Counted from the first letter of the stretch, positions 5,852 to 39,652 are shown. The stretch is DNA of 64,000 nucleotides from an uncultured Chloroflexia bacterium (GCA_963722105.1 CAVRKQ010000004.1:101759-165758); one strand, 5' to 3'. The notes: generated by a model not told the origin, from the sequence alone. A program made the numbers and translations.

Positions 5852-6157
5852 TCAGACCGGGCCGCTGCCCGTCCGGGTTCGCCCGCGAAGGGCATTCCAG
5901 CCGACCACGACGATCACGGCGCCGATGACGGCGACGATGATGGTGGTGAGGCTGAAGTCGTTGATGTAGTTACCGCCGGTGCCAGGCAGCAGCAGACCGG
6001 CGAGGAACCCGCCGACGAGCGCGCCGACGATGCCGAGCGCGATGTGCCCGATGACACCCATGCTCTCGTCACCCTTGACGAGGAAGCCGGCCAGGTAGCC
6101 GGCGATCGCCCCGACGACCAGCCACGAAATGATTCCCATGGGTTTCGACCCCTCCAT
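5852..6157 (-). CDS. GlsB/YeaQ/YmgE-family transglycosylase-associated small membrane protein. The true start is probably Met7 at 6139.
   Basis: MGIISWLVVGAIAGYLAGFLV...GIVGALVGGFLAGLLL is the typical fold. Three TM helices. Confidence 0.8.
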   Translation of the reverse strand: MEGSKPMGIISWLVVGAIAGYLAGFLVKGDESMGVIGHIALGIVGALVGGFLAGLLLPGTGGNYINDFSLTTIIVAVIGAVIVVVGWNALRGRTRTGSGPV

Positions 6158-6278
6158 GTTTGCTCGCGCGTCGTTCGACGCGCGCTTGGGCTACGTGAAC
6201 CATCGACCGGATGACGATACGCCTAGACAGCAGCCGGGATCGAACCTGAATCAGCCGCATGACGAGCGCAGCGGCGAG

Positions 6279-6758
6279 CTAGCCCGTGATCGACCCCAGG
6301 TGAGCCTCGGCCTGGAAGAGATTGATGCCGCTGTCGATGAGGTCGAGCAGCGCCCGCATCGTGCGCTCCTCCTCGACCTGCTCGGCGATGAACCACTGCA
6401 GGAACTCGAGGCTGCGGTGGTCGCCGGCGTCGCGAGCAGCCGCCGCAAGCGTGTTGAACAGGCCCGTGACCCTCGCCTCGTTGGCTCCTGCGGCCTCGAC
6501 GACGTCGCGCGCGGACGCGTAGGACGTGGGGGCACCTCGGACCGCCGGCAACGCGAACTTGATGTCGTTGTCGATCAGGAAGGTCATGATCCTGGCGCCG
6601 TGGCCCGCCTCCTCGACCGCCTGGTCGTGGAAGAGCTTGGCCCAGCCCTTGAGGCTCACGCGCTCGAAGTAAAGCGACATCCCCATGTAGGTCTGGTGCG
6701 CCGTCAGCTCGTGCGCGATCTGGGCCACGAGGAGCTTGGCGACCGGCTCGCTGATCAT
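6279..6758 (-). CDS. Ferritin-like protein (non-haem ferritin / bacterioferritin superfamily).
   Basis: MISEPVAKLLVAQIAHELTAHQTYMGMSLYFE...EEAGHGARIMTFLID...EFLQWFIAEQVEEE is the ferritin four-helix di-iron signature. The upstream part of the 232-aa ORF is Arg/Gly-rich junk. Confidence 0.8.
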   Translation of the reverse strand: MISEPVAKLLVAQIAHELTAHQTYMGMSLYFERVSLKGWAKLFHDQAVEEAGHGARIMTFLIDNDIKFALPAVRGAPTSYASARDVVEAAGANEARVTGLFNTLAAAARDAGDHRSLEFLQWFIAEQVEEERTMRALLDLIDSGINLFQAEAHLGSITG

Positions 6759-6775
6759 GCTGGAAGGGTACGTCG

Positions 6776-8362
6776 TCAGTCGCGCCACGGCGCAGGCGCC
6801 GGCCGGCCCAGCAGGTAGCCCTGGCCGAGCCCGACGCCCAGCCCCCGAAGCGCCTCGAGCTCCGCTTCTGTCTCGATGCCCTCCGCGATCAGCTCGCAGC
6901 CCGTCTCGCCGGCGAAGTGCACGAGGCCGGAAACCAGGGCCCGCCGGATCGGGTCCTCGTCGATGAGGCGGACCCACTCGATGTCGAGCTTCACGTAGTT
7001 CGGCTTGAGCGCGAAGATGTGGCGGAGGCTCGCGAATCCCGAGCCGGCGTCGTCGATCGCGAGGCGGACGTTCTGGCCCAGGCCCGCGAGCGCCGTCTTC
7101 ACCGCTTCGTAGTCGTCGATCCGCTCGTGCTCGGTGAGCTCGACGATGATCGTCCGATCGGTCGAGGCGAAGAGCTCGGGCAGCGACGGCTCGTGCTCGA
7201 TGACCTCCGCCGAGAGGTTGACGCTGAGCGCGACGCCGGGATCCAGGGACGCGACCCCCTCGACCGCGGCGGCGGCGGTTGCCCGCTGCAAGGCCGCCCC
7301 GAGCCCGATCGCGGCCGCCTCCTCGAACACGACGTCCGGCGCGGTGCCGTCGGCGAACCGCGTCAGCGCTTCCACGGCGACGAGCTCCCGCGACTCGAGC
7401 CGGACGATCGGCTGGAAGACCATCGTGAAGGCCCGATCGGCAATCAGCGTGCGCAGCCGCGTGATGGCGGCATCCGCGGTCTCCGCGCGCTCGACGGCCG
7501 GGCGCAGGACGACCACGATCTGACCGGTCGCGTCGATCAGGTCCGGCAAGCGGTGCGACATCGGCGCGCCGCGCCCGGCGGGTCGGAGGGCATAGACGAG
7601 GCAGCCCAGCGGCGCCCCGCCCGCGCCGAGGCGGAACGGAACGTAGGCGGCATCCACGAGCCAGCCGTCGGAGACCGACGGCGCCTTGCCGCTGTCAGTC
7701 CAGGGGCTGCTGGAGGCGCGGGCCGCGATCTCGCTCCCGAGTGGCTCATCGATCGCCCGCCCCGGCGGGAACCGCGACTCGAGGATGCCGCTCGCCGCAA
7801 TGCTCCGGACGGCGTCGCCACCGAAATGGAGGATCGCGACGCCGTCGACGCCGAGCGCGCTCGGGATCTGCTTCGTGAGCTCGGCGGCGAGCTCCAGGAG
7901 CGACCCGCTCTTGGTGAGCCCCTCGAGCATCGCGTTCAGGTTGCGCCGGACCTCACGACCCTGCTCCAGCTCTGAGGTCCAGGCGGTTCGCTCCCGCAGC
8001 TGCGCCCGCACGCGAGCCGTCAGCTCGCGGACCCGGACCGGTTTCCCGAGGTAGTCGTCCGCACCGAGCTCGAGGCCGCGGATCCGCTCGGTCTCATTGA
8101 TCGACCCGGTCACGAGGATCACCGGCAGCGTCTTGAACCGGTCGCTGGCGCGGATCTGGCGGAGCGTCCGGAGGCCGTCGAGGAACGGCATGTCGACATC
8201 GAGCAGGACGACATCGAAGGCCTGCTCGTCCAGCCTGGCGAGGGCGTCGCGACCGTTCGTGGCGAGGACCGTTTCATAGCCCTCGCGCGCGAGGGCGGCT
8301 TCGAGGTACGCGCGGGTCGCCGCGTCGTCGTCAGTGATCAGGACGCGCGGATTCTTCGCCAC
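6776..8362 (-). CDS. Response regulator with REC, a GAF-like middle region and an EAL c-di-GMP phosphodiesterase domain.
   Basis: REC: VLITDDDAATRAYLEAAL...VVLLDVDMPFLDGL...PVILVTG. EAL: FTMVFQPIVRLESRELVAVEALTRF...LAIDDAGSGFASLRHIFALKPNYVKLDIEWV...ELIAEGIETEAELEALRGLGVGLGQGYLLGRP. Confidence 0.85.
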   Translation of the reverse strand: MAKNPRVLITDDDAATRAYLEAALAREGYETVLATNGRDALARLDEQAFDVVLLDVDMPFLDGLRTLRQIRASDRFKTLPVILVTGSINETERIRGLELGADDYLGKPVRVRELTARVRAQLRERTAWTSELEQGREVRRNLNAMLEGLTKSGSLLELAAELTKQIPSALGVDGVAILHFGGDAVRSIAASGILESRFPPGRAIDEPLGSEIAARASSSPWTDSGKAPSVSDGWLVDAAYVPFRLGAGGAPLGCLVYALRPAGRGAPMSHRLPDLIDATGQIVVVLRPAVERAETADAAITRLRTLIADRAFTMVFQPIVRLESRELVAVEALTRFADGTAPDVVFEEAAAIGLGAALQRATAAAAVEGVASLDPGVALSVNLSAEVIEHEPSLPELFASTDRTIIVELTEHERIDDYEAVKTALAGLGQNVRLAIDDAGSGFASLRHIFALKPNYVKLDIEWVRLIDEDPIRRALVSGLVHFAGETGCELIAEGIETEAELEALRGLGVGLGQGYLLGRPAPAPWRD

Positions 8363-9859: not shown

Positions 9860-10066
9860 GTGACCACCGGAACCATCAAGAAGGTCATCGCCGATCGAGG
9901 CTTTGGCTTCATCACCGCCGACGATGCGAAGGAATACTTCTTCCACCGCGACGGCCTCGACTCCACGCTCGACTTCGATCGCCTCATGGGCGGTGAGAAG
10001 GTCGAGTTCGAGATCGAGCAGGGCCCCAAGGGTCCTCGCGCCAAGCTGGTCCACGCGGCCGCATAG
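9860..10066 (+). CDS. csp: Cold-shock protein (CspA family), using a GTG start.
   Basis: (M)TTGTIKKVIADRGFGFITADDAKEYFFHRDGL...GEKVEFEIEQGPKGPRA carries the RNP1/RNP2 motifs. It has a long conserved 5'UTR shared with the second csp at 42459. Confidence 0.85.
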   Translation: MTTGTIKKVIADRGFGFITADDAKEYFFHRDGLDSTLDFDRLMGGEKVEFEIEQGPKGPRAKLVHAAA

Positions 10067-10071
10067 CGCAC

Positions 10072-10110
10072 CCGGCGACCCGCCTCGTGCGGGTCGCCGA
10101 TCTCTTCATC
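10072..10110 (+). terminator. Terminator-like hairpin after csp. Stem CCGGCGACCCGC / GCGGGTCGCCG, loop CTCGT, then ATCTCTTCATC.
   Basis: Perfect 11-bp GC-rich stem followed by a T-containing tract. Confidence 0.35.
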
Positions 10111-10143
10111 CGGCGGCCCCGTGGTTGATCGACCACGTCCCCG

Positions 10144-11403
10144 TTGGCATTGCATCTGCGCCTGCGCCGGAGAACCGTCATCGTCCGAACCGCCTTCGTC
10201 TCCACGTACCCGCCCCGCCGCTGTGGGATCGCCACGTTCACGAGCGATCTGGCCTCGGTGACGCCCGACAGCGAGATCGCGGTCCTGCACCCGGGCGGCT
10301 CGGCCCTGACCTACCCCCTGAAGGTGCATCACCGGATCCGCAAGCACGAGCTGGCGGACTACCGCCGCACTGCCCAGGACCTGAACCGGTGCGTGGACGT
10401 CGTCTCGATCCAGCATGAGTACGGGATCTGGGGCGGCGAGGATGGCGAGCACGTGCTCGACTTCGTCCGCGCCCTGCGCGTCCCATCCGTCGCGACACTC
10501 CACACCGTGCTGCGCGACCCGACGCCCCACCAGCGCTCCGTCCTGGAGGACCTGGTCGCGACCGCGGAGAAGACCGTCGTGATGTCGCGCTCGGCCGCCA
10601 ACCTGCTCATCAGCGCCTACGACGTGGATCCCGATCGCCTGCAGGTCATCCCGCACGGCGTGCCCAACGTGCCGCTCGTCGATTCCGCGACGGTCAAGCC
10701 GGCCCAGGGAATCAAGGATCGCGACGTGGTCCTGAGCTTCGGCCTGCTCGGCCCCGGCAAGGGCTACGAGCTCGCGATCGAGGCACTGCCGGCGATCGCG
10801 GCGGCGCACCCGGACGTCCTGTACGTCATCGTCGGCGCGACGCACCCGGACCTGATCAGCACCGAGGGCGAGGCGTACCGCGAGAAGCTGCAGGCTGCGA
10901 TCGCGCGGCTGGACATGGAGCGCCACGTCCGGTTCATCGATCGGTTCGTCGGTCGGGACGAGCTCACCCGCTGGCTCCAGGCTGCCGACGTCTTCGTCAC
11001 GCCCTATCCGAACCTCGGCCAGATCGTGTCCGGGACCATGTCCTACGCGATGGGCGCCGGTCGCGCGGTCGTCTCGACGCCCTACACCTACGCCTCGGAG
11101 CTCCTGGCGGATGGCCGCGGGGTGCTCGTCGAGCCCGGTTCGGCGGCGGCGCTCGCCGACGGCGTGGCCTCGGTTCTCGGCGACCCGGAGCTGCGCGCGG
11201 CGATCGGCCGACGGGCCCATGCCCACAGCCGGCGGATGATCTGGCCTGCCGTCGGCACGGAATACAGCTCGGCTCTTCAAGGCGACCGCGCAGGGTTCGC
11301 GCGCCGGCTCGCCGGTCAGGACGGGCGTCCCGATCCATGCTTGAGGACGTCACGCCGGACGCCACGCTGGCGCCCCTGTACCCGATCAGCCGGAAGCACC
11401 TGA
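10144..11403 (+). CDS. GT4-family glycosyltransferase, paralogue of 42742..43872. The start may be a later GTG near 10175-10185. The 3' end overlaps the next gene by about 66 nt.
   Basis: AFVSTYPPRRCGIATFTSDL...GLLGPGKGYELAIEALPAIAAAHPDVLYVIVGATHPD...FVTPYP...E(x)7E-like C-terminal GT-B fold. About 55% identical by eye to 42742..43872. Confidence 0.75.
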   Translation: MALHLRLRRRTVIVRTAFVSTYPPRRCGIATFTSDLASVTPDSEIAVLHPGGSALTYPLKVHHRIRKHELADYRRTAQDLNRCVDVVSIQHEYGIWGGEDGEHVLDFVRALRVPSVATLHTVLRDPTPHQRSVLEDLVATAEKTVVMSRSAANLLISAYDVDPDRLQVIPHGVPNVPLVDSATVKPAQGIKDRDVVLSFGLLGPGKGYELAIEALPAIAAAHPDVLYVIVGATHPDLISTEGEAYREKLQAAIARLDMERHVRFIDRFVGRDELTRWLQAADVFVTPYPNLGQIVSGTMSYAMGAGRAVVSTPYTYASELLADGRGVLVEPGSAAALADGVASVLGDPELRAAIGRRAHAHSRRMIWPAVGTEYSSALQGDRAGFARRLAGQDGRPDPCLRTSRRTPRWRPCTRSAGST

Positions 11404-19290: not shown

Positions 19291-20961
19291 GTGCGAGAAT
19301 TCGAGATCCGTCTCATCGACAGCGCCACCAGCTTGGAGGAGCACGTGGAACTCGTCGGAGCCAAGATGATTCCCGTTCCAGTGGGCAATCCGTCGTTCGG
19401 CGGGAACGCCGCGGACGTCGAGCAGTTTCTCGCCGAGCTCCAGCGCCTGGACAGGCGTCGAGCCTTCGTCGTGTGGTCGGGTCGGACGGGGGTCGACTCG
19501 TACGCGTACGCGACCGCCCGGCAGCGCGCCGAAGCCGTCGCCATCGAGCAGCGAAACGCTGCCTGGATTGCCACGCGCGAGGCCGCCGAGTCGGTCGCCC
19601 GGGCCGCCCTCGACGACTCGGCGCTGTCGACCCAGGTCGTCTCGATCGTCAGCGAGATCGCCGGCATCGTCGCCGTCCGCGATCTCATCTCCGTCGAGGA
19701 TTTCGACCTGCTCCTGCTGCCCTGGACACGCCGCGGCGGGGAGCCTGCGACGAGGATCCACCACTGGCATTCAATGGCCGAGGCGACGGCCGAGGTCCGT
19801 CCGGCCGCGGAAGCGGAACGTGCGGGCGAGCAGCCCCAGGAGGAGACCACGGTGGCAGAGGACCTGAGGATCGTCGATGTGATTCGGCTCGATGCGGAGG
19901 AGACCGCCGCCGTCGCCGAAGCCGGACGGATCGCCGAGGAGGCGCGACGAGCGCAAATCGGCGAGCCGGCCAACACTCCCCCGCCGTCCGAGGAAGCGCG
20001 CCTCGAGGCTGCTCGGGCGACCGCCGCGGCAGAGGCCGAGCGCCTGGCGGCCGAGGACCGGCTGGCGGAGAACGCGCGCCTTGCGGACGCGGCGCGTCTC
20101 CAGGCGGAGCGGGCCGCGGCCACCGCGGAAGCGCAGCGAATCGCCGAGCGAGCTCGTCTCGGCGAGGAGGCGCGGCTGACGGAAGAATTGCGGCTCGCAG
20201 ACGAGGCTCGGGTACGGGCCGAGCGCGCGGCCACGGCGTCCCAGGCGGTGAACGACGCCGAGGACGCGATGTTGGCGCTGGTGGCCCGCCAGGCGCACGA
20301 GGCGCGGACCGCCGAAGCCTCTCGGCTCGCGGATCAGGGTCGTCTCATGGCGAGGGCTGCGCTGGCGGAAGAGGCCCGAAGGAAGGCGCAACGGTCCGTC
20401 GACCTCGCGGTATCGGAGCGATCGGCCGCCGAGGCTCGGCTCGCCGAGGCGATGCGCCTGGCCGAAGCGGCCCGGGCCGCCGAGGAACAGCACCGTGCAG
20501 ACTTCGCGCGGGCGACCGCCGAGGCTCGACGCGAGGAGGCGGCACGGGCGGACGCCGAGCGCGCCGCTTTCGCCGCCGCGGCCGTGCGGCTGACCGCGGA
20601 GGGTCGACTCGCCGAGCAGGCCGAGTCCGCCGAGCGCGCCCAGGCCGAGATGGAACGCACGGTCGCGGGGGCCGAGGAAGGCCGCCAAGCCGCGCGCGAA
20701 GCGGCGGATCGCCTGGGGGCGTTCCGTGCCGCCGAGGAGGACGCCCGCGCAGAGGCTGCTCGATTGGCCACGCTCGCCGCGGCTCGCACGAAGCCTTCCA
20801 CCCCTCCACGTGCGATGCGGCGGCCGCGCCCGGCAGCGGCATGGAAGATCGGCTCCCCCCGGTTCCGTCAGGCGGTCTCGGACTCGCGTCCCGCCGCGGT
20901 GGCGATCGTCGGGGTCGCTCTCGTCGCGGGCAGGGTCCTCTGGCGGATCGCGAGAGGCTGA
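19291..20961 (+). CDS. Tail-anchored repeat protein, paralogue of 51..1610. It has the same N-domain, then a ~350-aa charged helical array of A-R-L-x-E-E / AERAAAxAEAxR repeats, then a C-terminal TM.
   Basis: The N-domain aligns with ORF 51..1610. It has a long low-complexity coiled-coil-like segment and a C-terminal TM helix, AVAIVGVALVAGRVLWRIA. Confidence 0.65.
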   Translation: MREFEIRLIDSATSLEEHVELVGAKMIPVPVGNPSFGGNAADVEQFLAELQRLDRRRAFVVWSGRTGVDSYAYATARQRAEAVAIEQRNAAWIATREAAESVARAALDDSALSTQVVSIVSEIAGIVAVRDLISVEDFDLLLLPWTRRGGEPATRIHHWHSMAEATAEVRPAAEAERAGEQPQEETTVAEDLRIVDVIRLDAEETAAVAEAGRIAEEARRAQIGEPANTPPPSEEARLEAARATAAAEAERLAAEDRLAENARLADAARLQAERAAATAEAQRIAERARLGEEARLTEELRLADEARVRAERAATASQAVNDAEDAMLALVARQAHEARTAEASRLADQGRLMARAALAEEARRKAQRSVDLAVSERSAAEARLAEAMRLAEAARAAEEQHRADFARATAEARREEAARADAERAAFAAAAVRLTAEGRLAEQAESAERAQAEMERTVAGAEEGRQAAREAADRLGAFRAAEEDARAEAARLATLAAARTKPSTPPRAMRRPRPAAAWKIGSPRFRQAVSDSRPAAVAIVGVALVAGRVLWRIARG

Positions 20962-20975
20962 GCCCGCGCGATCGG

Positions 20976-21563
20976 CTAGCGCGGCTCGTACGTCAGGATC
21001 AGCACGCCGCCCTTGGTGGCCCGGGACTCCTTGAGCTTGAGGCTGGCCTCGGCGCCGTCGCGGAAGAGCTTCCTGCCCGTGCCGAGGACGATCGGGTAGA
21101 CCATCAGGCGGTACTCGTCGACGAGGTCGTTGGCGATCAGCGTCTGCACCAGCTCGCCGCTGCCGATGACCTGGATGTCCTTGCCCGGCGCCGCTCGAAG
21201 CTCGTTGACGGCCTTCGGGACGTCACCGGAGATGAGCGTCGAGTTCTGCCAGCTGAGCGGCTCGGTCAACGTCGTCGAGACGATGTACTTCCGGAACCGG
21301 TTCATGAACTTGCCGTGCGGCTCGTCGGGCGGCACGTTCGGCCAGAAGCCCGCGAAGATGTCGTACGTCCGCCGGCCGAGCAGCAGGCCGTCGGTGTGCT
21401 CGAACGAGTCGAGCACGACGCTGTCGTCGTTGTCCTCCCCGTCGTCGAGCTCGGTCGCCCAGCCGCCCTTGTCGAAGCTGCCGCTGGGATCCTCCTCGGG
21501 GCCGCCCGGGCCCTGGTACACGCCGTCGAGGGTGAGGAACTCGCTGACCACGATCTTCGCCAT
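20976..21563 (-). CDS. Dihydrofolate-reductase-like protein (RibD C-terminal domain / YwjB family).
   Basis: MAKIVVSEFLTLDGVYQGPGG...LLLGRRTYDIFAGFWP...IQVIGSGELVQTLIANDLVDEYRLMVYPIVLGTGRKLF. Confidence 0.8.
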   Translation of the reverse strand: MAKIVVSEFLTLDGVYQGPGGPEEDPSGSFDKGGWATELDDGEDNDDSVVLDSFEHTDGLLLGRRTYDIFAGFWPNVPPDEPHGKFMNRFRKYIVSTTLTEPLSWQNSTLISGDVPKAVNELRAAPGKDIQVIGSGELVQTLIANDLVDEYRLMVYPIVLGTGRKLFRDGAEASLKLKESRATKGGVLILTYEPR

Positions 21564-21572
21564 GGCGTCAGC

Positions 21573-22112
21573 CTACCCGGCAGGAACGTAGGTCAGCCTG
21601 ATCACGTCGTCGTCGATCGCTTCGTGCGCCACGAGGCGGAGCGGCGGCCGGGGTCCCGCGAAGAACGGCTTGCCCTGACCGAGGACGATCGGGTGCAGGT
21701 AGATCCGGTATTCGTCGATCAGGCCGAGCTCCGTGAGGCTGTGCGCCACGCGCGTGCCGGCGACCTCGATCTCGCCGTCGCGCTCGGCCTTCAGCGTGCG
21801 GATGAGACCTTCGAGATGGGCCGCGACCAGCGTGGCGTTCGGCCCGACTGACTGCAACGTGCGCGAGACGACCCATTTCGGCTGGTTCCGCCATGCCGCG
21901 GCGAACGCGCGCTCCTCGGAATCCCACTCGGGCTGGTCGTCGTCCCAGTACCGCATGATCTCGTACATCGTGCGGCCGTAGACGCTGCCCGCCGACCGCT
22001 CGGCGGCCTCGATGAAGTGGCGGAAGAGCTTCGGGCTCGGGTCGAACGCCGTGTGATCGACGTAGCCGTCCAGGGTCTGGTTCAGTCCGTACACGATCTT
22101 CGCCACGCCCAT
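21573..22112 (-). CDS. Second dihydrofolate-reductase-like (RibD_C) protein, tandem paralogue of 20976..21563.
   Basis: MGVAKIVYGLNQTLDGYVDH...IEVAGTRVAHSLTELGLIDEYRIYLHPIVLGQGKPFF. Confidence 0.8.
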   Translation of the reverse strand: MGVAKIVYGLNQTLDGYVDHTAFDPSPKLFRHFIEAAERSAGSVYGRTMYEIMRYWDDDQPEWDSEERAFAAAWRNQPKWVVSRTLQSVGPNATLVAAHLEGLIRTLKAERDGEIEVAGTRVAHSLTELGLIDEYRIYLHPIVLGQGKPFFAGPRPPLRLVAHEAIDDDVIRLTYVPAG

Positions 22113-22224: not shown

Positions 22225-23245
22225 TCAGTTGCCGTCACTGACGCCCCAGGCAAGACCAAGGGCCTCGACACGAGCGATGAGCTCGACCGGGCTCGCCGTG
22301 GTGGCAAGGTCGCGCGCCAGGGCTATCGCGCGTTCCACGTTGATCCGCCCGCTCGGGTCGCCGATGTGGAACACGAGTTGGGCGACGCCCGCCATCTCGG
22401 CCGCAAGGATCTGGACCAGGGTCATCATCACGCGGTTGCCTCCGAACGCCCCGCCTCCCCAGAAGCCGGAGTGGATGGCGACAAGCGCATGTGGGCCGGC
22501 AGTTCGCCTCGACTCGAGGACCGCGGCGCGGAAACCCGAGTAAGCGGTGGCGAGTGCGAGATCGATCTGCTCCCGCTGATAGCGGCCGCGACCGCCGTAC
22601 GGGGCGGCGATCGCGAGGATGTTGGAGATCGTCGGCGGTTCGATCCGCGTCGTCGCCTCGCGAACGGCATCGGCGGTGGCTCTCGCGAATGCCATGCCGT
22701 AGAGCCAGCTCGGTCGGCCGCCGGCTGCCTCTGGGGCGGTCTGGAGGCTGAGGCGCCGCTCGGCTCCCAGGACGAGCACCGGCGTCGGACGACCGTTCGC
22801 GATGGTGGTGGCGGGTCGACCTTCCGCGACGATCGCTTCGCGGAGCGAACCGAGGCTCGGATGCTCTGCGACCTGGATCTCGTCCTGGGCGAACAGCACC
22901 GAGCCGTAGGCATCGAAGAGGTTTGGATCGGCGAAGTTGACGTGCCACTCGACGCCGACGCTCGGATCGAGGACCGGGCGGTAGTCGTACTAGCCGTCGC
23001 GAACCACCACGAGGCGGTCGAGGCCTACCGCGTCGAGCTCGAGCGGAACCGGCAGCAGGAGCCCCGGCCACCGGCTGTACTCGAGCTGGCCCGTATGGAT
23101 GGTGCCTGGGGGACACGCGATCGCGTACAGCCGCTGCTTGTTCTCGTTGCGGGAGCACCGCTGGGTGCTGTCGCACCAGCGCAGCCGCCTCGTACGTTCG
23201 CCGCTGAAGAGGCTCGGGGACGGCCGGATCCTGCGGCTCGGTCAT
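22225..23245 (-). pseudogene. Canonical (eukaryotic-type) poly(ADP-ribose) glycohydrolase-like macro-domain protein. It is disrupted by one frame change near 23180 and an in-frame TAG at 22990..22992. The catalytic Gly-rich/QEE loop is degenerate (QDE).
   Basis: C-terminal motif IHSGFWGGGAFGGNRVMMTLVQILAAEMAGVAQLVFHIGD matches PARG ...[38 protein letters not shown]. Upstream, VNFADPNLFDAYGSVLFAQDEIQV matches [24 protein letters not shown]. Lower GC than the flanks. Confidence 0.6.
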
Positions 23246-23289: not shown

Positions 23290-24471
23290 TTAGGCCGCGT
23301 GGACGTTCCCGAGCCCGAATGGGGGAGGATCGAACCGCCGCAAGAGCGCGCCCACTTCCCCTCGTTCGATCTGGGGCCATGCGATGCTGTCGCCGAAGGC
23401 GGCGACCCCCATGCCCCGCGCCATACGGTCGGAACGGTCGGCGATCCTGATAATTTCATCGAAGACGTCAATGCCAAAAGGCTCCCGCCAGAACATTCCC
23501 ATATCGAGAGTGCGATCCAATTCGCTGAGGTGCGGAAGATGTGCGATCTGCCAGCGAACGGAAGCGACGGCCGCGGCGACCTCTGCCGCATCAATGCGCG
23601 ATGAGAATGCCGCTCGGAAGAAGGGCTTGCCGACGTCGCGTGAGGTGACGACCGCGACAAATTGCCCAGGCAGGGGCTCCACAGTCGCTGGGAACTCCCG
23701 CGACACGCTTCCGCGCTCGAGCCAGCCCATCTTCCGGGGAGCCGGAACGATCCACCGACACAACCTACCGGTTGCCTGTTCCGCTGCCCGTTTTCGATTG
23801 AGGTCATCCTCGTCGGCCTTTGCTCGCGTCCCGAGCCTGGTCATCGCCGCAACCCACGGGAAGAGGTCATCGGACCTCGTCGTGCGAGTCGGACCCGACG
23901 GTTCCCTGGCGAGCTCGCGGACCGCGCCACCAAGGGTCGTCTCCGATCGCAGGGCGGATGCAAACTTGGCTGCAAATCCGTCTCGGTATGCGTGACGCGA
24001 TTCGCGCGTCCCGCCTGCATACGCGTTTTGGCCTCGCCAGGGCCAGCTAGAGCCGAGCGCGTCCTCAGCAATCCCTGCGACGAAATCGGCCGATCCTGGG
24101 ATCTTCGAGAGGCCCCCTTCAGCGAGTGTGAGAGCGCCATAGAGAGCTGGGATGTGCGCTGCCAAGAGGACCGCAGCGACAGCTTGCGCCAGCTTCTCGC
24201 CGTCGGCTTCTCCCATCGCCTGGGCCGCAGCCGGGGATGGCAATTCTTTGCGTCGTTTCGCATCCGTTGCCATATGTACACCTCTGCTTTCGGACTGCGG
24301 TCTGGTCGCTGCCCGCATCCGCGCAACATCCGCGAGGGCCCGCTCTTTGCGACCTGCGATTTCGGCAGCCTCCTCCTCCGAATGCTCGGCCGGATCGTGG
24401 CTGTGGATCACACCGCTCTCGTGGCGATGGGAGTTCGCGATCTCGTCCAGGATGTCCCGTTTCTTGGTCAT
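23290..24471 (-). CDS. Uncharacterised 393-aa protein encoded immediately upstream of, and co-oriented with, the PARG-like gene. No recognisable domain.
   Basis: Long ORF in a lower-GC (A/T-containing codon) region where spurious ORFs are unlikely. Acidic N-terminus (HSEEEAAEIAGRKERALAD). Confidence 0.6.
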   Translation of the reverse strand: MTKKRDILDEIANSHRHESGVIHSHDPAEHSEEEAAEIAGRKERALADVARMRAATRPQSESRGVHMATDAKRRKELPSPAAAQAMGEADGEKLAQAVAAVLLAAHIPALYGALTLAEGGLSKIPGSADFVAGIAEDALGSSWPWRGQNAYAGGTRESRHAYRDGFAAKFASALRSETTLGGAVRELAREPSGPTRTTRSDDLFPWVAAMTRLGTRAKADEDDLNRKRAAEQATGRLCRWIVPAPRKMGWLERGSVSREFPATVEPLPGQFVAVVTSRDVGKPFFRAAFSSRIDAAEVAAAVASVRWQIAHLPHLSELDRTLDMGMFWREPFGIDVFDEIIRIADRSDRMARGMGVAAFGDSIAWPQIERGEVGALLRRFDPPPFGLGNVHAA

Positions 24472-24472
24472 C

Positions 24473-25433
24473 TCAAGTGTTCGAGCTCATGAGCTTGCGC
24501 ACCAACGGACTCGGTCCAACCTGGATCCCGTTGTGTGCGAGGGTCGCCTCAACCGCAGGCCGATCCGGTAGCACGAAAGTTCTTCCCGTGACCTGCTCGA
24601 CATAGCGCAGCTCTGCCTCGGCGGCCCGGGCGTGACCGCGATCGATACCGAGGCTCATGCAGTAGCAGGCCACGGCGAGTTCGTAGTTCGCATCCTCAAC
24701 CGCGAGGTAGCCCAAGTTCCGATAGCCGCGTGCGAGCGCGTCCACCGAATGAGCGACCTGCATGGCGTGAAGCGTCAATTCGCGCAGCTCCGACTTCCTG
24801 CCGGAAAGCTTCATGACCTCGCCCAGCTCAAACATGGCATAGGTACTTACCGGGTTGACGCGAAGCGCTTCTTTGAGCGACGCCTCAGCGCCATCCAGAT
24901 CTCGAAGCTCGATCAACACCGCGCCGAGGAGTGAGTAGAGCGTGGCGCGATCCTGAGGCAGCTTCCGCACGTGCCTTGTTGGCTGGTAGAGCTGTCCATA
25001 GATCGCCAGCTCGAAGGGGTTTGCGAAGTGGCGATATTCCGAGACGCTGTCGTCGACGTACAGGCCATTGCCAGTCCCGTATTGGCGGACCAGATTCTTC
25101 CAGCACGATCCGGGCCGTCGCGAAGTCGCCAGCGCCGATCTTCGCACGGGCTGCTGTCAGGCCTTGGTCAAATCCACGCTCGAAGCCGTCAGCAATCCCA
25201 TCGAACTTGACTCTCACGTCGGCCGGGGCGATCGCATGCAGCATGCGCCCAAGCTCGCGCAGGATCTCCTTGGCTTGGGGATGACCTCCGCACGATTGAG
25301 CGACCGACGTGATGAGGGCGCCGTCGTGCTTGAAGTCGCCGGTCAGACTGGCCGTGACTCCCGCGATGACCTCAGCGTAGGTTCGACCGGCAACGTCGGC
25401 CGGGCCGGCGCCGTTCACCATTGGATGCCTCAT
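24473..25433 (-). CDS. Uncharacterised helical/TPR-like protein, about 320 aa, with one frame change near 25090. First gene of the three-gene lower-GC island.
   Basis: Frame 24885..25526 (MRHPMVNGAGPADVAGRTYAEVIAGV...) joins frame 24473..25147 (...WKNLVRQYGTGNGLYVDDSVSEYRHFANPFELAIYGQLY...TPR-like LKEALRVNPVSTYAMFELGEV). Confidence 0.5.
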
Positions 25434-29696: not shown

Positions 29697-30413
29697 CTAG
29701 CCGCGCGAGTCCTGGGGCACCCCGTCGACGGCATCGACTGCGCGCCCAAGGGTGTCGAGCGCCACGATGCTCCAGCGGGCGGGCATCGGACCGGGCGTCC
29801 AGGCGGCCCACCAGCCGTTCGCGCTCGAGGCCACGATCGAGGGCTGTCCCGGACTCCGGATCTCGACTCGAGCGATGCCCGGGCCTGTGCGGCCGACGAG
29901 ATGGCTCGCGGTGATCGGATCCTCGCCGGACCAGTTGAAGTCCGTGAACTCGAGCTCGAGGGGGTCGAGGTCTCCAGTTCCGGCGGACACGATGTGGCCG
30001 CGCTCGGCCGACACGCCACCCAGGGGGTCGACGGCCATGTCGGTGCAGCTCGCCCAACCACCACTCACATTCGCGTAGTAGTACGTCTGCAGGACGCCTC
30101 CGCCGCGAGCGTCGATCAGGTTGATGACGGCGCCAGCGGGAAGGTCAGCGCCAAGGTTCGCGCGGCACGCCTGGTCCACCCGCGGTACGAGATTCGGCGG
30201 AATGGGCACGGGTTCCGGCAGCCACTTGCCGAAAATCGCGCCGGCAAGGGGTAGCTCGCCTGCCGGCGCGGAAGACGAAGGCTCGGAAGTGGCACGCTCG
30301 GCCGACGCCGGAGGTGAACCCGGCGCCGAGGGCGGAGCGGTCAATTGGCACGCGACAACGCCGAGTAATCCCATGAGGATCGGCGCGAGGCACCAGCGAC
30401 CGACCAGACGCAC
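29697..30413 (-). CDS. Putative lipoprotein, function unknown. A GTG start gives the signal peptide MRLVGRWCLAPILMGLLGVVAC.
   Basis: Lipobox VVAC, a Pro/Ser-rich linker, then a ~170-aa domain. Confidence 0.5.
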   Translation of the reverse strand: MRLVGRWCLAPILMGLLGVVACQLTAPPSAPGSPPASAERATSEPSSSAPAGELPLAGAIFGKWLPEPVPIPPNLVPRVDQACRANLGADLPAGAVINLIDARGGGVLQTYYYANVSGGWASCTDMAVDPLGGVSAERGHIVSAGTGDLDPLELEFTDFNWSGEDPITASHLVGRTGPGIARVEIRSPGQPSIVASSANGWWAAWTPGPMPARWSIVALDTLGRAVDAVDGVPQDSRG

Positions 30414-32474: not shown

Positions 32475-32717
32475 ATGAGAAAGCACACCACGATCGACCT
32501 GGACGTCGATCTGGTCCGCAAAGCCGCCGAAGCACTCGGGACGACCAGGACCACCGACACGGTCCATGCCGCACTGTCCGATGTGGTACGAAGGCGCTTG
32601 CGGATGGAGATCGCCAGCCTTCGCCCTGCGCTGACCCTCGAGGACCTCGATGCGATGCGGTCGCACCGATTTGCGGAGGACAAGGCGCCGTACGGGTCGG
32701 ACGTCGACGGTGGTTGA
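32475..32717 (+). CDS. vapB: Type II antitoxin (VapB family; MRKHTTIDLD... ribbon-helix type).
   Basis: MRKHTTIDLDVDLVRKAAEALGTTRTTDTVHAALSDVV. Its stop overlaps the PIN toxin start. Confidence 0.7.
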   Translation: MRKHTTIDLDVDLVRKAAEALGTTRTTDTVHAALSDVVRRRLRMEIASLRPALTLEDLDAMRSHRFAEDKAPYGSDVDGG

Positions 32718-33123
32718 GATCTGGGACACGAGTGCGCTGATCCTTGCTGCTCGCGAGCCGACCGCCGGGCGCGACCTGACGGACGCGCTGGCGGATGATG
32801 CGGTCGCGGTAACGGAGCCCATCGTCCTTGAATACCTGAACGGCGCCCGCCAGCTCATTGAATACGAAGCCTTCAGCGTCAGACTGCAGGCCGCCAAGGT
32901 GATCACGACGACGCCCGAGGATTGGCAGCGTGCGCTGAGCGTCCATCGCGCACTCGCGGCGAGCGGCCCGGGGCATCAGCGAAGCGTTCGGCTCGTCGAC
33001 CTGATCGTCGCCGCCGTCGCCGAACGCGCCGACCTTCCGATCGTGCATCTTGACAAGGACTACGAGCGGATCGCCGCGATCACGGGGCAGCCGATCCGCC
33101 GTCTCGTGACCACGACGTCGTGA
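32710..33123 (+). CDS. vapC: PIN-domain ribonuclease toxin VapC.
   Basis: (M)VEIWDTSALILAAREP...VTEPIVLEYLNG...VDLIVAAVAERADLPIVHLDKDYERIA carries the PIN acidic residues. Confidence 0.75.
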   Translation: MVEIWDTSALILAAREPTAGRDLTDALADDAVAVTEPIVLEYLNGARQLIEYEAFSVRLQAAKVITTTPEDWQRALSVHRALAASGPGHQRSVRLVDLIVAAVAERADLPIVHLDKDYERIAAITGQPIRRLVTTTS

Positions 33124-33337
33124 ATCCGCATCGACGCCGCAAGCGATTGCCCAGCGCCCGGGAGGCAGATGCCCGGCGCTTGCGCAGGCTCCCGCAGGCA
33201 GACAACCAGGAGCGGCGCGATCGCGCGCTCGAGCTGGACGCCGCTGACAACCGGGCGTGGACAGAGGATTCGCTTCCGCTCACGGCCTCGCTGTGGTCGC
33301 GCTTGGAGTGGTAGGCCGCACCTAGACTCGCGCCGAG

Positions 33338-36325: not shown

Positions 36326-38376
36326 TCATTCCCCCGCGAGCGCCGTCACCAGCTCGACCATCTCCTGGCCGTACCGCGCGAGTCGGGACGGACCCATGCC
36401 CTTGATGCGGCGCAGCGCCGGGATGGTGGTCGGGCGCTGGTCGACGATCTCGATCAGCAGCGAGTCCGGCGCGATGACGTAGGCCGGCACGCCATCCGAC
36501 CGCGCGGTATCGAGCCGCCACTCCCGCAGCGCCGTCATCAGCGGGCTGTCCTCGTCGCGAGCGCGGCGCGGCGCAGGGAGCGGCGCGCCGGGCACGATCG
36601 TGACTCGGCGGGCCGGGCGATCCCCCAGCGCGGCGAGGAACTCGCTGGGCCGGCGCCGTGTCTCGCGATCGCCCTGGCCGAGGCGCTTCTCCGCCCACGA
36701 CAGCGCGAGGTGGCGCCGGGCGCGCGTCAGCCCCACGTACAGCAGCCGGCGCTCCTCGGCGAGCTCGTCGTCCGACTCCGCCTGGCGGATCGGCAGCGTC
36801 CCGTCCTCGAGCTGCGGCAGCAGGACCGCGTCCCACTCGAGGCCCTTGGCGCGGTGGAGCGTCAGGAGGTTCACGCCGTCGGCCTGCGCCCTCGCCCTCC
36901 GCGGCGGCCCGGCGCGTCGAACTCGGCCGCCAGCGCCGCCCGATCGAGGTCGTGCCGAGCCGCGACCGCCTCGCCCGCGATCTCCAGCAGCAGCGCCAGC
37001 GAGGCCGTGCGCTCGCGCGCCTCCGCTCCTGCGCGCGACGGCGGCCCGCCCGCGGCTCCCGCGCCGCTCGAGTCGTCCTCGAACCCGAGCTCCGACGCGC
37101 AGCCGCGCGTCGAACGCGGCCAGCAGCATCGAGCCGACGGCGTCCTCCGGCAGGCGTCGCAGCAGGCGCAGCGCGTCGCGGATCTCCGGGCGCTGGAAGA
37201 ACCGCTGGCCGCGGACGCGGAACGGGATCCGGGCCTTCGTCAGCGCGGCCTCGATCGGGTGGGATCTGGGCGTTGATGCGAACGAGGATCGCGATCTCCG
37301 ACGCCGCGATCCCCTCCCCCACGAGGCGTCCGATCGTCGCGACCAGGTGCGCGAGCTCCGCATCGGCGTCGGCGAAGCGATCGATCGAGGGCTTCGGCCC
37401 GGCGGGCATCGTGGCCACGAGCTGCTTCCGGCGGCCCTCGGCGGCGAGCAGCCGGTTCGCGAGCGCGAGGATCTGCGGCGAGCTCCGGTAGTTGCGCGAG
37501 AGCGTGATCTCGCGGGCGTCGGGATGGCGTGCCGCGAAGCCGGTCAGGTAGTCGGGCGTGGCGCCGGTGAAGGTGTAGATCGTCTGGTCGGCATCGCCGA
37601 CGACGCAGAGGTCGCGCGACTCGCCGAGCCACAGCTCCAGCAGGCGCTCCTGGAGCGGGTTCGTGTCCTGGTACTCGTCGACGCTGATCCAGGTCTTCTG
37701 GGCCTGGACGGTCTCGGCGGCGTCCGGGTCGGTCTCGAGCAGGCTCGACCGTCAGCGAGAGCATGTCGTCGAAGTCGATCCGGCTCGTTGCGCTCCTTGG
37801 CGCGCTCGTAGTCGGCGTAGATGCGCGCGAACAGGTCGGCCGGGATCGGCGGCTCGCGGCCGGCCGCCGGGGCCTCGGCCTCGTAGCGCCGGGGCCGGAT
37901 GCGGCGGGCCTTGGCCCACTCGATCGCGTCGGCGATGTCCTTGGAGGGCGTGAAGCGGTAGTGGCCGGGCAGCTGCCGGGCGAGCCGGCGATGATCAGCG
38001 GCGCTTGGAGTCGAGGATCTCGGGCAGCGGCGCGCCGTCGTGGCGGCTGGGCCAGAAGTGTCGTAGCTGGCTCAGCGCGTGGGCGTGGAACGTCCGCGCC
38101 ATGACCCCGGGCAGGCCGAGCGCCCGCATCCGCTCGACCATCTCCGTCGGCGGCCTTGTCCGTGAAGGTGACGAGGAGCACCTTGTCCGCGGGCACGGCG
38201 TTCGTCGCGATGGCGTGCGCCGCGCGGCGGCTGATCACCCGCGTCTTGCCGGTGCCCGCGCCGGCGAGGATCGCGACGGGGCCGTCGACGAGCCGAACGG
38301 CCTCGAGCTGCTCCGGGTCGAGGTCGCGCAGGAGCGCCTCGGCGTCAGGCTGGGGCATGCCTCGAAGGGTAGGCAT
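36326..38376 (-). CDS. uvrD: UvrD/PcrA-type superfamily-1 DNA helicase with a C-terminal HRDC-like domain (UvrD2-like). It needs at least 3 frame changes, so it is either a pseudogene or an indel-error artefact.
   Basis: N-terminus LDPEQLEAVRLVDGPVAILAGAGTGKTRVISRRAAHAI...VLLVTFTDKAA. Later TEMVERMRALGLPGVMARTFHAHALSQ and LARQLPGHYRFTPSKDIADAIEWAKARRI lie in other frames. C-terminus TALREWRLDTARSDGVPAYVIAPDSLLIEIVDQRPTTIPALRRIKGMGPSRLARYGQEMVELV. Confidence 0.7.
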
Positions 38377-38475: not shown

Positions 38476-38742
38476 GTGGCATGCATGGCGAGCACGGTCG
38501 GCGAGCGGGGCCAGGTCACGATCGAAAAGGCGATTCGCGAGGAACTGGGCGTCTACGCGGGGGATGTCGCCGTCCAGCGGGTCGAGGACGGCAAGGTCGT
38601 GATCGAGTTCGTCCCGGCGCCGCATCGCCGCTCGCTTGCTGGCGCGCTGCGTGACAAGGTCGGTCGAATGCCGGCGGACCAGACGTGGTCCGCCCTTCGA
38701 CACGTCGCGGAGAGCACGCCGGATCCGGATCGCAAGCCTTGA
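38476..38742 (+). CDS. vapB: AbrB/SpoVT-domain type II antitoxin.
   Basis: MASTVGERGQVTIEKAIREELGVYAGDVAVQRVEDGKVVIEFV is a swapped-hairpin fold. Its stop overlaps the downstream TTG start. Confidence 0.65.
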   Translation: MACMASTVGERGQVTIEKAIREELGVYAGDVAVQRVEDGKVVIEFVPAPHRRSLAGALRDKVGRMPADQTWSALRHVAESTPDPDRKP

Positions 38743-39134
38743 TCGGGGTCGATACGTCGGTCGTCGTCCGCTATCTCGTCGGCGAGCCGCCCGACCAGGC
38801 CAAGCGGGCGGCGGTGATCATCGACGGCGACGCGGACGTCGGGATCTCGATCCTCGTGATCGTCGAGGCCGCGCACGTCCTCCGTTCGAACTACGAGCTC
38901 GCCCGCTCGGACATCCTCGACGCCCTGATCGACCTCGTGTCGAGGACGAATCTCATCCCGCTCGAGCTCTCGAAGGCGGATGTCATGGACGCCCTCGTGC
39001 GCGCCCGCGCGTTCCCCTCGTCGCCGCTCCAGGACGCGCTCATCGCGGCCAGTGCGCGCGCATTCGGGGCGCTGCCGGTCTTCACGTTCGACGAGCGCTT
39101 CGGGCGGCTCGGATCCGCCGTCGCCTCGCCCTAA
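38739..39134 (+). CDS. vapC: PIN-domain toxin VapC (TTG start).
   Basis: (M)IGVDTSVVVRYLVGEPPDQ...ILVIVEAAHVLRS...ALPVFTFDERFGRLG. Confidence 0.7.
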   Translation: MIGVDTSVVVRYLVGEPPDQAKRAAVIIDGDADVGISILVIVEAAHVLRSNYELARSDILDALIDLVSRTNLIPLELSKADVMDALVRARAFPSSPLQDALIAASARAFGALPVFTFDERFGRLGSAVASP

Positions 39135-39652
39135 GAAGGGCTGACGCCGGCAGCCGGCTCGAGCACGACGATCGCCGCCTCGCGGGCCCGCGTCGCGGCA
39201 TTCGCATCCGTGTACGCGGCCGAGCCGATGTCGACCAGCTGCCGCCACAGTCGCGCACGCTCTTCGCCGTCCGCGGACCTGGCCCGGAGCTCGCGCGTCG
39301 AGCCATCCGACAGGCGGACGACGGCACTCGGCGTGGCCTGGAGGTTGAGCCACCACGCCGGCTCGGGCTGGAGCCAGCCGTTCATCGCCGGCACGACGAG
39401 GTTCGCGCCGTCCTCGACGTAGCCGACGATCGCGACGCGCTTCGCGCCGCTCCGGCGCCCGACCGTCGTCAGCCGGAGCATCCCCCACTGCGTCGGGGTC
39501 GGCCGGCGAAGCCCGAGGCGCCCGCCCGTGAGCCGCAGCATCGCTCGATGGCCCTTCCAGATCGTTCGGATCAGCCAGGGTGGCACCTTCGGCGACGGCT
39601 TCGATCGATCGATCGTCTTCGTCTCGGTGGTGGTTGTGGTCGTCGTCGCCAT
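39131..39652 (-). CDS. Deazaflavin (F420H2)-dependent nitroreductase-family protein (DUF385).
   Basis: MATTTTTTTETKTIDRSKPSPKVPPWLIRTIWKGHRAMLRLTGGRLGLRRPT...LRLTTVGRRSGAKRVAIVGYVEDGANLVVPAMNGWLQPEPAWWLNLQATP...LRARSADGEERARLWRQL. Confidence 0.75.
   Translation of the reverse strand: MATTTTTTTETKTIDRSKPSPKVPPWLIRTIWKGHRAMLRLTGGRLGLRRPTPTQWGMLRLTTVGRRSGAKRVAIVGYVEDGANLVVPAMNGWLQPEPAWWLNLQATPSAVVRLSDGSTRELRARSADGEERARLWRQLVDIGSAAYTDANAATRAREAAIVVLEPAAGVSPS

Follow-up and report, generated by a model that had tools for sequence, protein, structure and literature searches.

A PARG-like macrodomain gene with two lesions in a Chloroflexia metagenome assembly belongs to a widespread bacterial clade with a conserved QDE loop

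The stretch of DNA analysed here (64 kb, hereafter the window) carries on its minus strand a PARG-like macrodomain gene of what we call the QDE clade, at positions 22225..23245, as delimited by translations, homologues and a match to Pfam PF05028. The gene comprises 1021 nt (340 codons plus 1 base), from an ATG at 23245..23243 to a TGA at 22227..22225, and is broken into three pieces as assembled; it becomes a gene of 339 codons once one extra base is removed and an in-frame TAG is taken as a sense codon. The start codon (ATG, 23243..23245, minus strand; MTEPQDPAVPEPLQRR...) coincides in alignments with the starts (ATG or TTG) of nine related loci and with homologous N-termini. The natural N-terminus, MTEPQDPAVPEPLQRRTYEAAALVRQHPAVL, in the upstream part of the gene, is in a different frame from the TAG-containing part. 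The equivalent of the PARG catalytic loop, NFADPNLFDAYGSVLFAQDEIQVAEHP, which is the signature of the family, was located at 22858..22938 (minus strand) by conservation in relatives and by hhalign. It includes QDE (CAG GAC GAG; 22879..22887, minus strand), which sequence and hhalign identify as the counterpart of the PARG QEE, and FDAYG (approximately 22903..22917, minus strand), whose Asp (GAT; 22912..22914, minus strand) occupies a variable position in the alignment of relatives. The diphosphate-binding loop, GFWGGGAFGGN, was found at 22435..22467 (minus strand), in the region covered by both the Pfam and PDB sequence alignments, and is kept in the family. Downstream of the TAG, a 224-aa ORF with a GTG start survives (22225..22899, minus strand); it appears in the ORF listing and is identical to the database protein P0094. 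The first 115 residues, and with them the EWHVNFAD...AYG part of the loop, are missing from this ORF, and the 224-aa product on record for the gene is thus a truncation.

The stop is a plus-strand CTA at 22990..22992 (minus-strand TAG, codon 85) and lies in frame between ...LDRLVVVRDG and YDYRPVLDPSVGVEWHVNFADPNLFDAYGSVLFAQDEIQ..., the minus-strand frame reading ...LELDAVGLDRLVVVRDG, the stop, and then YDYRPVLDPSVGVEWHVNFADPNLFDAYGSVLFAQDEIQVAEHP...; an earlier interpretation made from the sequence alone (the sequence-only reading) had placed it correctly. It had also described protein-like sequence on both sides of the stop, in agreement with tblastn alignments of homologues from related genomes, which run uninterrupted across the TAG with 70–78% identity. 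Relatives have Tyr, Phe or His at this codon (TAC, TTC or CAC), and a change from TAC to TAG needs one C-to-G transversion. The second lesion is one extra base in a GGG (plus strand; CCC on the minus strand) at 23151..23153. It was found by DNA alignment, the minus strand reading CTC-C-CGC in the window versus CT[CT]CGC in nine relatives (L001, L003–L006, L008, L009, L011 and L012). Homologues read HPAVL-RNENKQ, and the window changes frame between HPAVL and RNENKQ. A further frame change had been postulated about 190 nt upstream of the TAG; such a change is real, at a distance of approximately 160 nt. Relative to the intact orthologues of ~339 aa, the reading frame of the window copy is disrupted by one +1 base and one TAG. 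The restored protein keeps all 70 of the 70 family-invariant residues and deviates at 6 of the 162 columns that are ≥90% conserved (family median 5, range 0–17), which argues against any decay of the gene beyond the two lesions, and the rest of the gene showed no relaxed constraint. The stop lies in a GTACTAGC-type context, which may be a candidate for systematic G/C miscalls, e.g. at methylated CTAG.

Directly downstream of the PARG-like gene lie two tandem RibD_C-type genes (20976–21563 and 21573–22112, minus strand), both intact, both ending with TAG and both named 'dihydrofolate reductase' by a source database. Directly upstream, after a 44-nt gap, is a 393-aa ORF (23290..24471, minus strand) for which no Pfam or PADLOC match was found and whose region was scored as non-coding by the codon-usage model. 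Further upstream lies a TPR-like gene fragment (24482–25415, minus strand), frameshifted near position 25097, which matches only the C-terminal ~300 residues of proteins of 815–988 aa. In L005 and L007 the genes of these proteins are situated a few kilobases upstream of the PARG-like copy, which is the only trace of local synteny. No recurrent partner gene was found across 80 loci of the family, the largest neighbour cluster (10 of 80) having the appearance of an off-frame ORF, and a PADLOC search for anti-phage defence systems gave no match for the PARG-like family.

The PARG-like identity proposed earlier was upheld by sequence, profile and structure comparisons. The match to PF05028 scored 37.3 bits against a cut-off of 26.3 and covers only profile positions 115–197 of 207, i.e. 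the diphosphate-loop region; the same region was aligned with the rat, human and mouse PARGs (E = 1.6e-7) in a profile search of the PDB sequences. An AlphaFold2 model was built for P0001, an orthologue with 84% identity (pTM 0.84, mean pLDDT 76), in which the loops at residues 111–126, 170–185 and 262–265 have low confidence, the pLDDT being <50 in loops of interest. When this model was compared with the PDB by Foldseek, the 42 best matches were all canonical PARGs (E-values from 2e-8 to 6e-7), with alignments of ~305 columns, 18–19% identity and moderate TM scores (0.4–0.5 by query). The profile of the N-terminal alpha-helical accessory domain, PF20811 (PARG_cat_N), gave no match at E ≤ 1, and the Foldseek alignments span ~305 of the 339 residues, including the N-terminal 95. 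In an hhalign comparison of the family profile with an alignment of collected eukaryotic PARG sequences (probability 97.6%, E = 3.4e-12, 176 columns), the loop was aligned on DFAN..GGG..QEEIRF of the eukaryotic enzymes, with QDE exactly on QEE, FAD on FAN and one Gly on GGG. The Glu of QDE (E122) is aligned with the second Glu of QEE, the counterpart of human Glu756, which is the catalytic residue of human PARG (PMC7050489).

The PARG-like class is defined by the signature GGG-x(6-8)-QEE (PMC7050489; PMC8120803). This signature is absent from the window protein and from all relatives examined, in which the segment is [x]AYG-x(3)-[FL]A-QDE. The replacement of GGG and the change of QEE to QDE reported in the sequence-only reading therefore stand in the main, QDE lying on QEE and GGG being largely missing, with the correction that one Gly is kept. 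The diphosphate loop of PARGs carries G[AV][FY] (PMC7050489; PMC8120803), and this motif is present in the window protein, within GFWGGGAFGGN. Since the clade retains the PARG fold, diphosphate loop and catalytic Glu and lacks the defining signature, it is best described as a PARG-like variant and not as PARG as defined; databases label its members 'PARG'.

Canonical PARGs are the best structural matches of the clade protein and share with it the strand-loop-helix order around the catalytic loop, a near-identical diphosphate loop followed by LxQxLAA, and the Glu756 counterpart. The clade differs from them in having QDE for QEE, only one Gly left of GGG and Asp for Asn before the loop, and in its clade-specific invariant blocks (RPTPVLVMGAERR, PSWLYG, IDPPT.SN and APYGG.GRY). 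Its proteins, moreover, are ~339 aa long without regulatory regions, and they are bacterial and have no known PARP partner. The microbial PARGs (DUF2263/TIGR02452; 3SIG of T. curvata and 5ZDB of D. radiodurans) are likewise bacterial, single-domain PARG-like macrodomains, and the residue before the motif, which is Asn in canonical PARGs, is Asp in them as in the clade (PMC7050489). However, they keep GGG-x(6-8)-QEE (PMC8120803), which is absent from the clade. The TIGR02452 profile scored 13.9 bits against a cut-off of 50, which together with the missing signature places the protein outside the microbial PARGs, and the Foldseek matches to microbial PARGs were far weaker than those to canonical PARGs (from E = 4e-4 for D. 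radiodurans to 1e-3). The Arg-specific MavL/Larg1/DUF4804 proteins provide a precedent for macrodomain hydrolases that lack both the MacroD and PARG signatures and act on a non-PAR linkage (PMC10951314). Kinship with this group was considered and rejected, as its motifs ([VIL]xGxGxGx[FWY] and WDxx[SA]xPGN[DE][FY][FWY]; PMC10951314) are absent from the alignment and no match to Pfam DUF4804 was found. The QDE clade is clearly on the PARG branch.

A protein search detected >1,700 relatives of the PARG-like protein. Homologues of ~339 aa with 60–84% identity cover 100% of the restored protein, and the best ~90 of the >1,700 relatives are intact, ~339 aa long and 70–84% identical over the full restored sequence; one of these bears the name of a Limnocylindrales MAG. 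In species-representative genomes, 246 loci of the family were found in many phyla. The segment EWH[VL]NFADPxLFxAYGxxLFAQDExQxAEHP is conserved in 79 of 80 loci from such genomes (Chloroflexota, Planctomycetota, Acidobacteriota, Gemmatimonadota, Bacteroidota, Actinomycetota, Synergistota and a Pyxidicoccus strain), a conservation that is partly built in because EWH[VL]NFAD was one of the two seeds of the scan. When 1.84 billion cluster representatives (clusters at 50% identity) were searched with a profile, without such a bias, 481 clusters were obtained at E ≤ 1e-30, and FAQDE..EHP was present in 146 of the best 150 of the 481 representatives; three of the four lacking it are short (184–282 aa). 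Neither QEE nor GGG was found at the loop in any clade member examined (80 loci and 150 representatives). The clade signature can be written as FAD-x(7)-YG-x(3)-[FL]AQDE-x-Q-x-AEHP together with the canonical PARG diphosphate loop G-x-W-G-C-G-A-[FY]-G-G, and E122 of QDE is invariant in the family.

Its strong conservation across phyla marks the loop as a signature of the family that is under selection. The earlier description of this loop as degenerate can accordingly be discarded, and none of the close homologues has an intact GGG..QEE here, which had been named as possible counter-evidence to that description. The Asp of FDAYG is the sole motif residue peculiar to the window: relatives have Tyr, Val, Phe, Cys, Trp, Gly, Ala, Thr or Leu at this, the only variable, position. 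As two bases separate GAT from the common TAC, this Asp represents a genuine divergence rather than a single error, and by the alignment it is an unremarkable one. The window locus encodes an ordinary member of this widespread bacterial clade, and nothing in the window makes the clade special. The named strain Pyxidicoccus fallax DSM 14698 has an intact copy (L077, 10001..10978). The literature searched contained no account of a PARG clade of the QDE type, which is not proof of its absence. Tandem head-to-tail PARG-like paralogues (5907–6941 and 6964–7992 of L042), each ~50% identical to the window protein, were observed in a fen Chloroflexi MAG.

The two lesions have to be viewed against the state of the assembly. 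A self-trained codon-usage Viterbi analysis of the 64-kb window revealed 46 same-strand, zero-gap frame switches, some of which are normal gene boundaries. In stitched translations of six other genes of the window, 11 or more frame junctions are crossed by single Pfam domain alignments. The gene for a UvrD/Rep-type helicase with a C-terminal HRDC domain (36329..38346, minus strand) consists of eight frame pieces, each well conserved, with seven frame changes in 2 kb, and its UvrD-helicase N-domain (profile positions 1–268 of 271) crosses four junctions; no other gene shows as clearly that the consensus is rich in indels. Two junctions each are crossed by one domain alignment in the Peripla_BP_2 and BPD_transp_1 genes, and one junction each in the GH130, Bac_luciferase and GerE genes. 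A further junction at approximately 25097, in the TPR-like fragment, was shown by tblastn with a homologue, which brings the verified frameshifts besides those of the PARG-like gene to at least 12. The window contains roughly one frameshift per 2–3 kb, in otherwise well-conserved genes. Such a density is not natural for these genes and is the pattern expected of an unpolished long-read consensus. An explanation by homopolymers was rejected, as the maximum run length near the 46 junctions (within 20 nt) follows the background distribution; the indels of the window, and likewise that of the PARG-like gene, sit in runs of 2–3 nt. The periplasmic-binding-protein gene (BtuF-like, PF01497; 25480–26376, minus strand) contains two compensating frameshifts ~100 nt apart, so that its ORF stays open and ~33 residues are replaced by an off-frame sequence rich in Arg, Gly and Pro. 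Compensating frameshifts of this kind escape checks of ORF length.

The closest relatives largely come from 'MFD' MAGs, which were obtained from Nanopore reads only, with Flye and one round of Medaka and without short reads (PMC12313526); low-coverage Nanopore bins need polishing (PMC9262707). Similar indel-garbled stretches occur in the PARG-like gene of the Nanopore MAG loci L009 and L013. In L013, an MFD MAG (10001–10933), a compensated frame-shifted stretch lies just after QDEIQ. We infer that the window assembly, too, is of Nanopore origin. RNA genes could not serve as an error gauge, as neither a tRNA nor an Rfam match was found in the 64-kb window. A compensated frame-shifted stretch was also seen in L014 (1967–2950), where it includes a stop and affects the EWHVNFAD..AYG motif; the contig name (K_1441412_L_4864_cov_14) suggests a short-read assembly.

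Against this background, the damage to the PARG-like gene is probably not biological. The extra base at 23151..23153 is almost certainly an artefact, and the TAG arose either by a substitution error, a rarer event, or by a nonsense mutation in the very recent past; that both lesions are assembly or sequencing artefacts we regard as somewhat probable. In the most likely scenario, the gene would be intact in the organism, and the extra C and the TAG would be errors in the consensus of a long-read metagenome assembly that had not been polished; the lesions are thus most likely technical, or at most the result of a trivial recent pseudogenization. The TAG requires separate consideration. It is the only in-gene stop found in the 64 kb, the in-segment stops at 29699, 51210/51219 and 56306, which had been candidates for substitution errors, all being normal gene ends. 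Every other demonstrated lesion of the window is an indel, and because the TAG is a substitution, the indel error model does not automatically explain it. The contrast drawn in the sequence-only reading between the TAG and 'homopolymer indels elsewhere' holds in that the window is full of frameshifts and the TAG stands alone; it fails for the homopolymers, in which the sites are not enriched.

A serious, if rather less than probable, alternative is that the population really carries the TAG, alone or together with the frameshift, and that an accessory gene has just been lost; its product would then be only the 224-aa C-terminal ORF or none. The singular nature of the TAG among the lesions speaks for such a loss, and real inactivation is made plausible by the patchy, accessory distribution of the family and its lack of a conserved neighbourhood, as expected for a dispensable gene, and by the copy in the short-read MAG (L014), which is frame-shifted over the same motif. 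On the other hand, the retention of all invariant residues means that any inactivation must be very recent, the accompanying frameshift is in the same class as the artefacts elsewhere, and a lesion in so error-rich an assembly carries low evidential weight. At roughly one frameshift per 2–3 kb, a stop plus a frameshift should not be read as biology, and for the window itself the result is mainly a caution against such readings. The options that had been listed for this protein, namely catalytic divergence, inactivation or base-calling error, include the likely answers.

The clade protein would use the conserved diphosphate loop with its Phe to bind ADP-ribose, and the retained Glu (the Glu756 counterpart) would hydrolyse an ADP-ribosyl linkage with the help of the Asp in the place of Glu755. 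Several of the longer cluster representatives are fusions: an N-terminal DSP-type phosphatase domain (PF22784 PTP-SAK/PF22785/PF22741) is present in P0258, P0265, P0267, P0329 and P0343, and a DUF429 domain, a CCCH zinc finger (zf-CCCH) and an RNAP-alpha-CTD-like domain are found in one representative each (P0262, P0309 and P0311). The concerted and conserved replacement of GGG and the first Glu, together with the lack of a PARP link, makes a non-PAR substrate likely, and the recurrent phosphatase and nucleic-acid-binding fusions suggest mono-ADP-ribosylated or phospho-ADP-ribose species, possibly linked to nucleic acids. Given the strict loop conservation, the retained catalytic Glu and the domain associations, a predicted active (ADP-ribosyl)hydrolase with a non-PAR substrate is favoured over a pure reader.

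It is unlikely, in our estimate, that the whole clade consists of non-catalytic ADP-ribose readers in which the loss of GGG and of the first Glu abolished hydrolysis, a proposal that is independent of the two lesions. The missing GGG-x(6-8)-QEE signature and the kept ADP-ribose-binding diphosphate loop are what such readers would have, and in mouse PARG the E748N and E749N mutants, in which one or the other Glu is shortened, are dead and the GG737/738AA and N733A mutants impaired (PMC3897571). However, the replacement loop is near-invariant across phyla (FAQDE.Q.AEHP in the great majority of the best 150 representatives) and contains the Glu756 counterpart, an acidic residue at the Glu755 position and new invariant His residues, a conservation more typical of an active site. 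The Asp in place of Asn before the motif is likewise found in microbial PARGs (PMC7050489), and the phosphatase-domain fusions suggest an enzymatic pathway.

The predicted hydrolase activity may be extended to a bolder, tentative proposal that we consider rather doubtful: the QDE clade would be a third, active branch of PARG-like proteins, bacterial and nearer in sequence and fold to eukaryotic PARG than to the DUF2263 microbial PARGs, which would use an Asp-Glu pair and a Gly-poor loop to hydrolyse a non-PAR linkage. Considering the fusions, those to HhH-type domains included, it could act on the ADP-ribosylated ends of nucleic acids or on a phosphorylated ADP-ribose metabolite. If this were true, the branch could be the bacterial sister or the source lineage of the eukaryotic PARG catalytic domain. 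With its PARG fold and diphosphate loop and its different, strictly conserved catalytic loop, the clade offers a modest lead in the biochemistry of ADP-ribosylation; characterization of an intact member would show if a second chemistry or substrate is possible on the PARG scaffold and would bear on the origin of eukaryotic PARG.

Decoding of the TAG at codon 85 (by recoding, read-through, pyrrolysine or a reassigned amber codon), with the gene functional as written, has in its favour only the conserved protein sequence in frame on either side and is highly improbable: it is effectively refuted by the use of TAG as the commonest ordinary terminator in the window (in both RibD_C-like genes, a ferritin-like gene and many others), relatives carry ordinary Tyr, Phe or His codons at the site, an unrelated frameshift correction would be needed besides, and no suppressor or other tRNA gene was found in the window. 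Elsewhere in the window, a long ORF beyond the RibD_C-type genes (19291–20961, plus strand) is highly repetitive and rich in Ala, Arg and Glu (AEAERLAAEDRLAENARLADAARLQAERAA...) and is overlapped by large ORFs in other frames. This ORF may encode a coiled-coil repeat protein, or it may be an artefact of base composition in DNA with 70% GC. Two small gene pairs (32481–33138 and 38485–39142, plus strand) have, from their translations only, the look of VapBC-type antitoxin/PIN-toxin modules with stop/start overlap.
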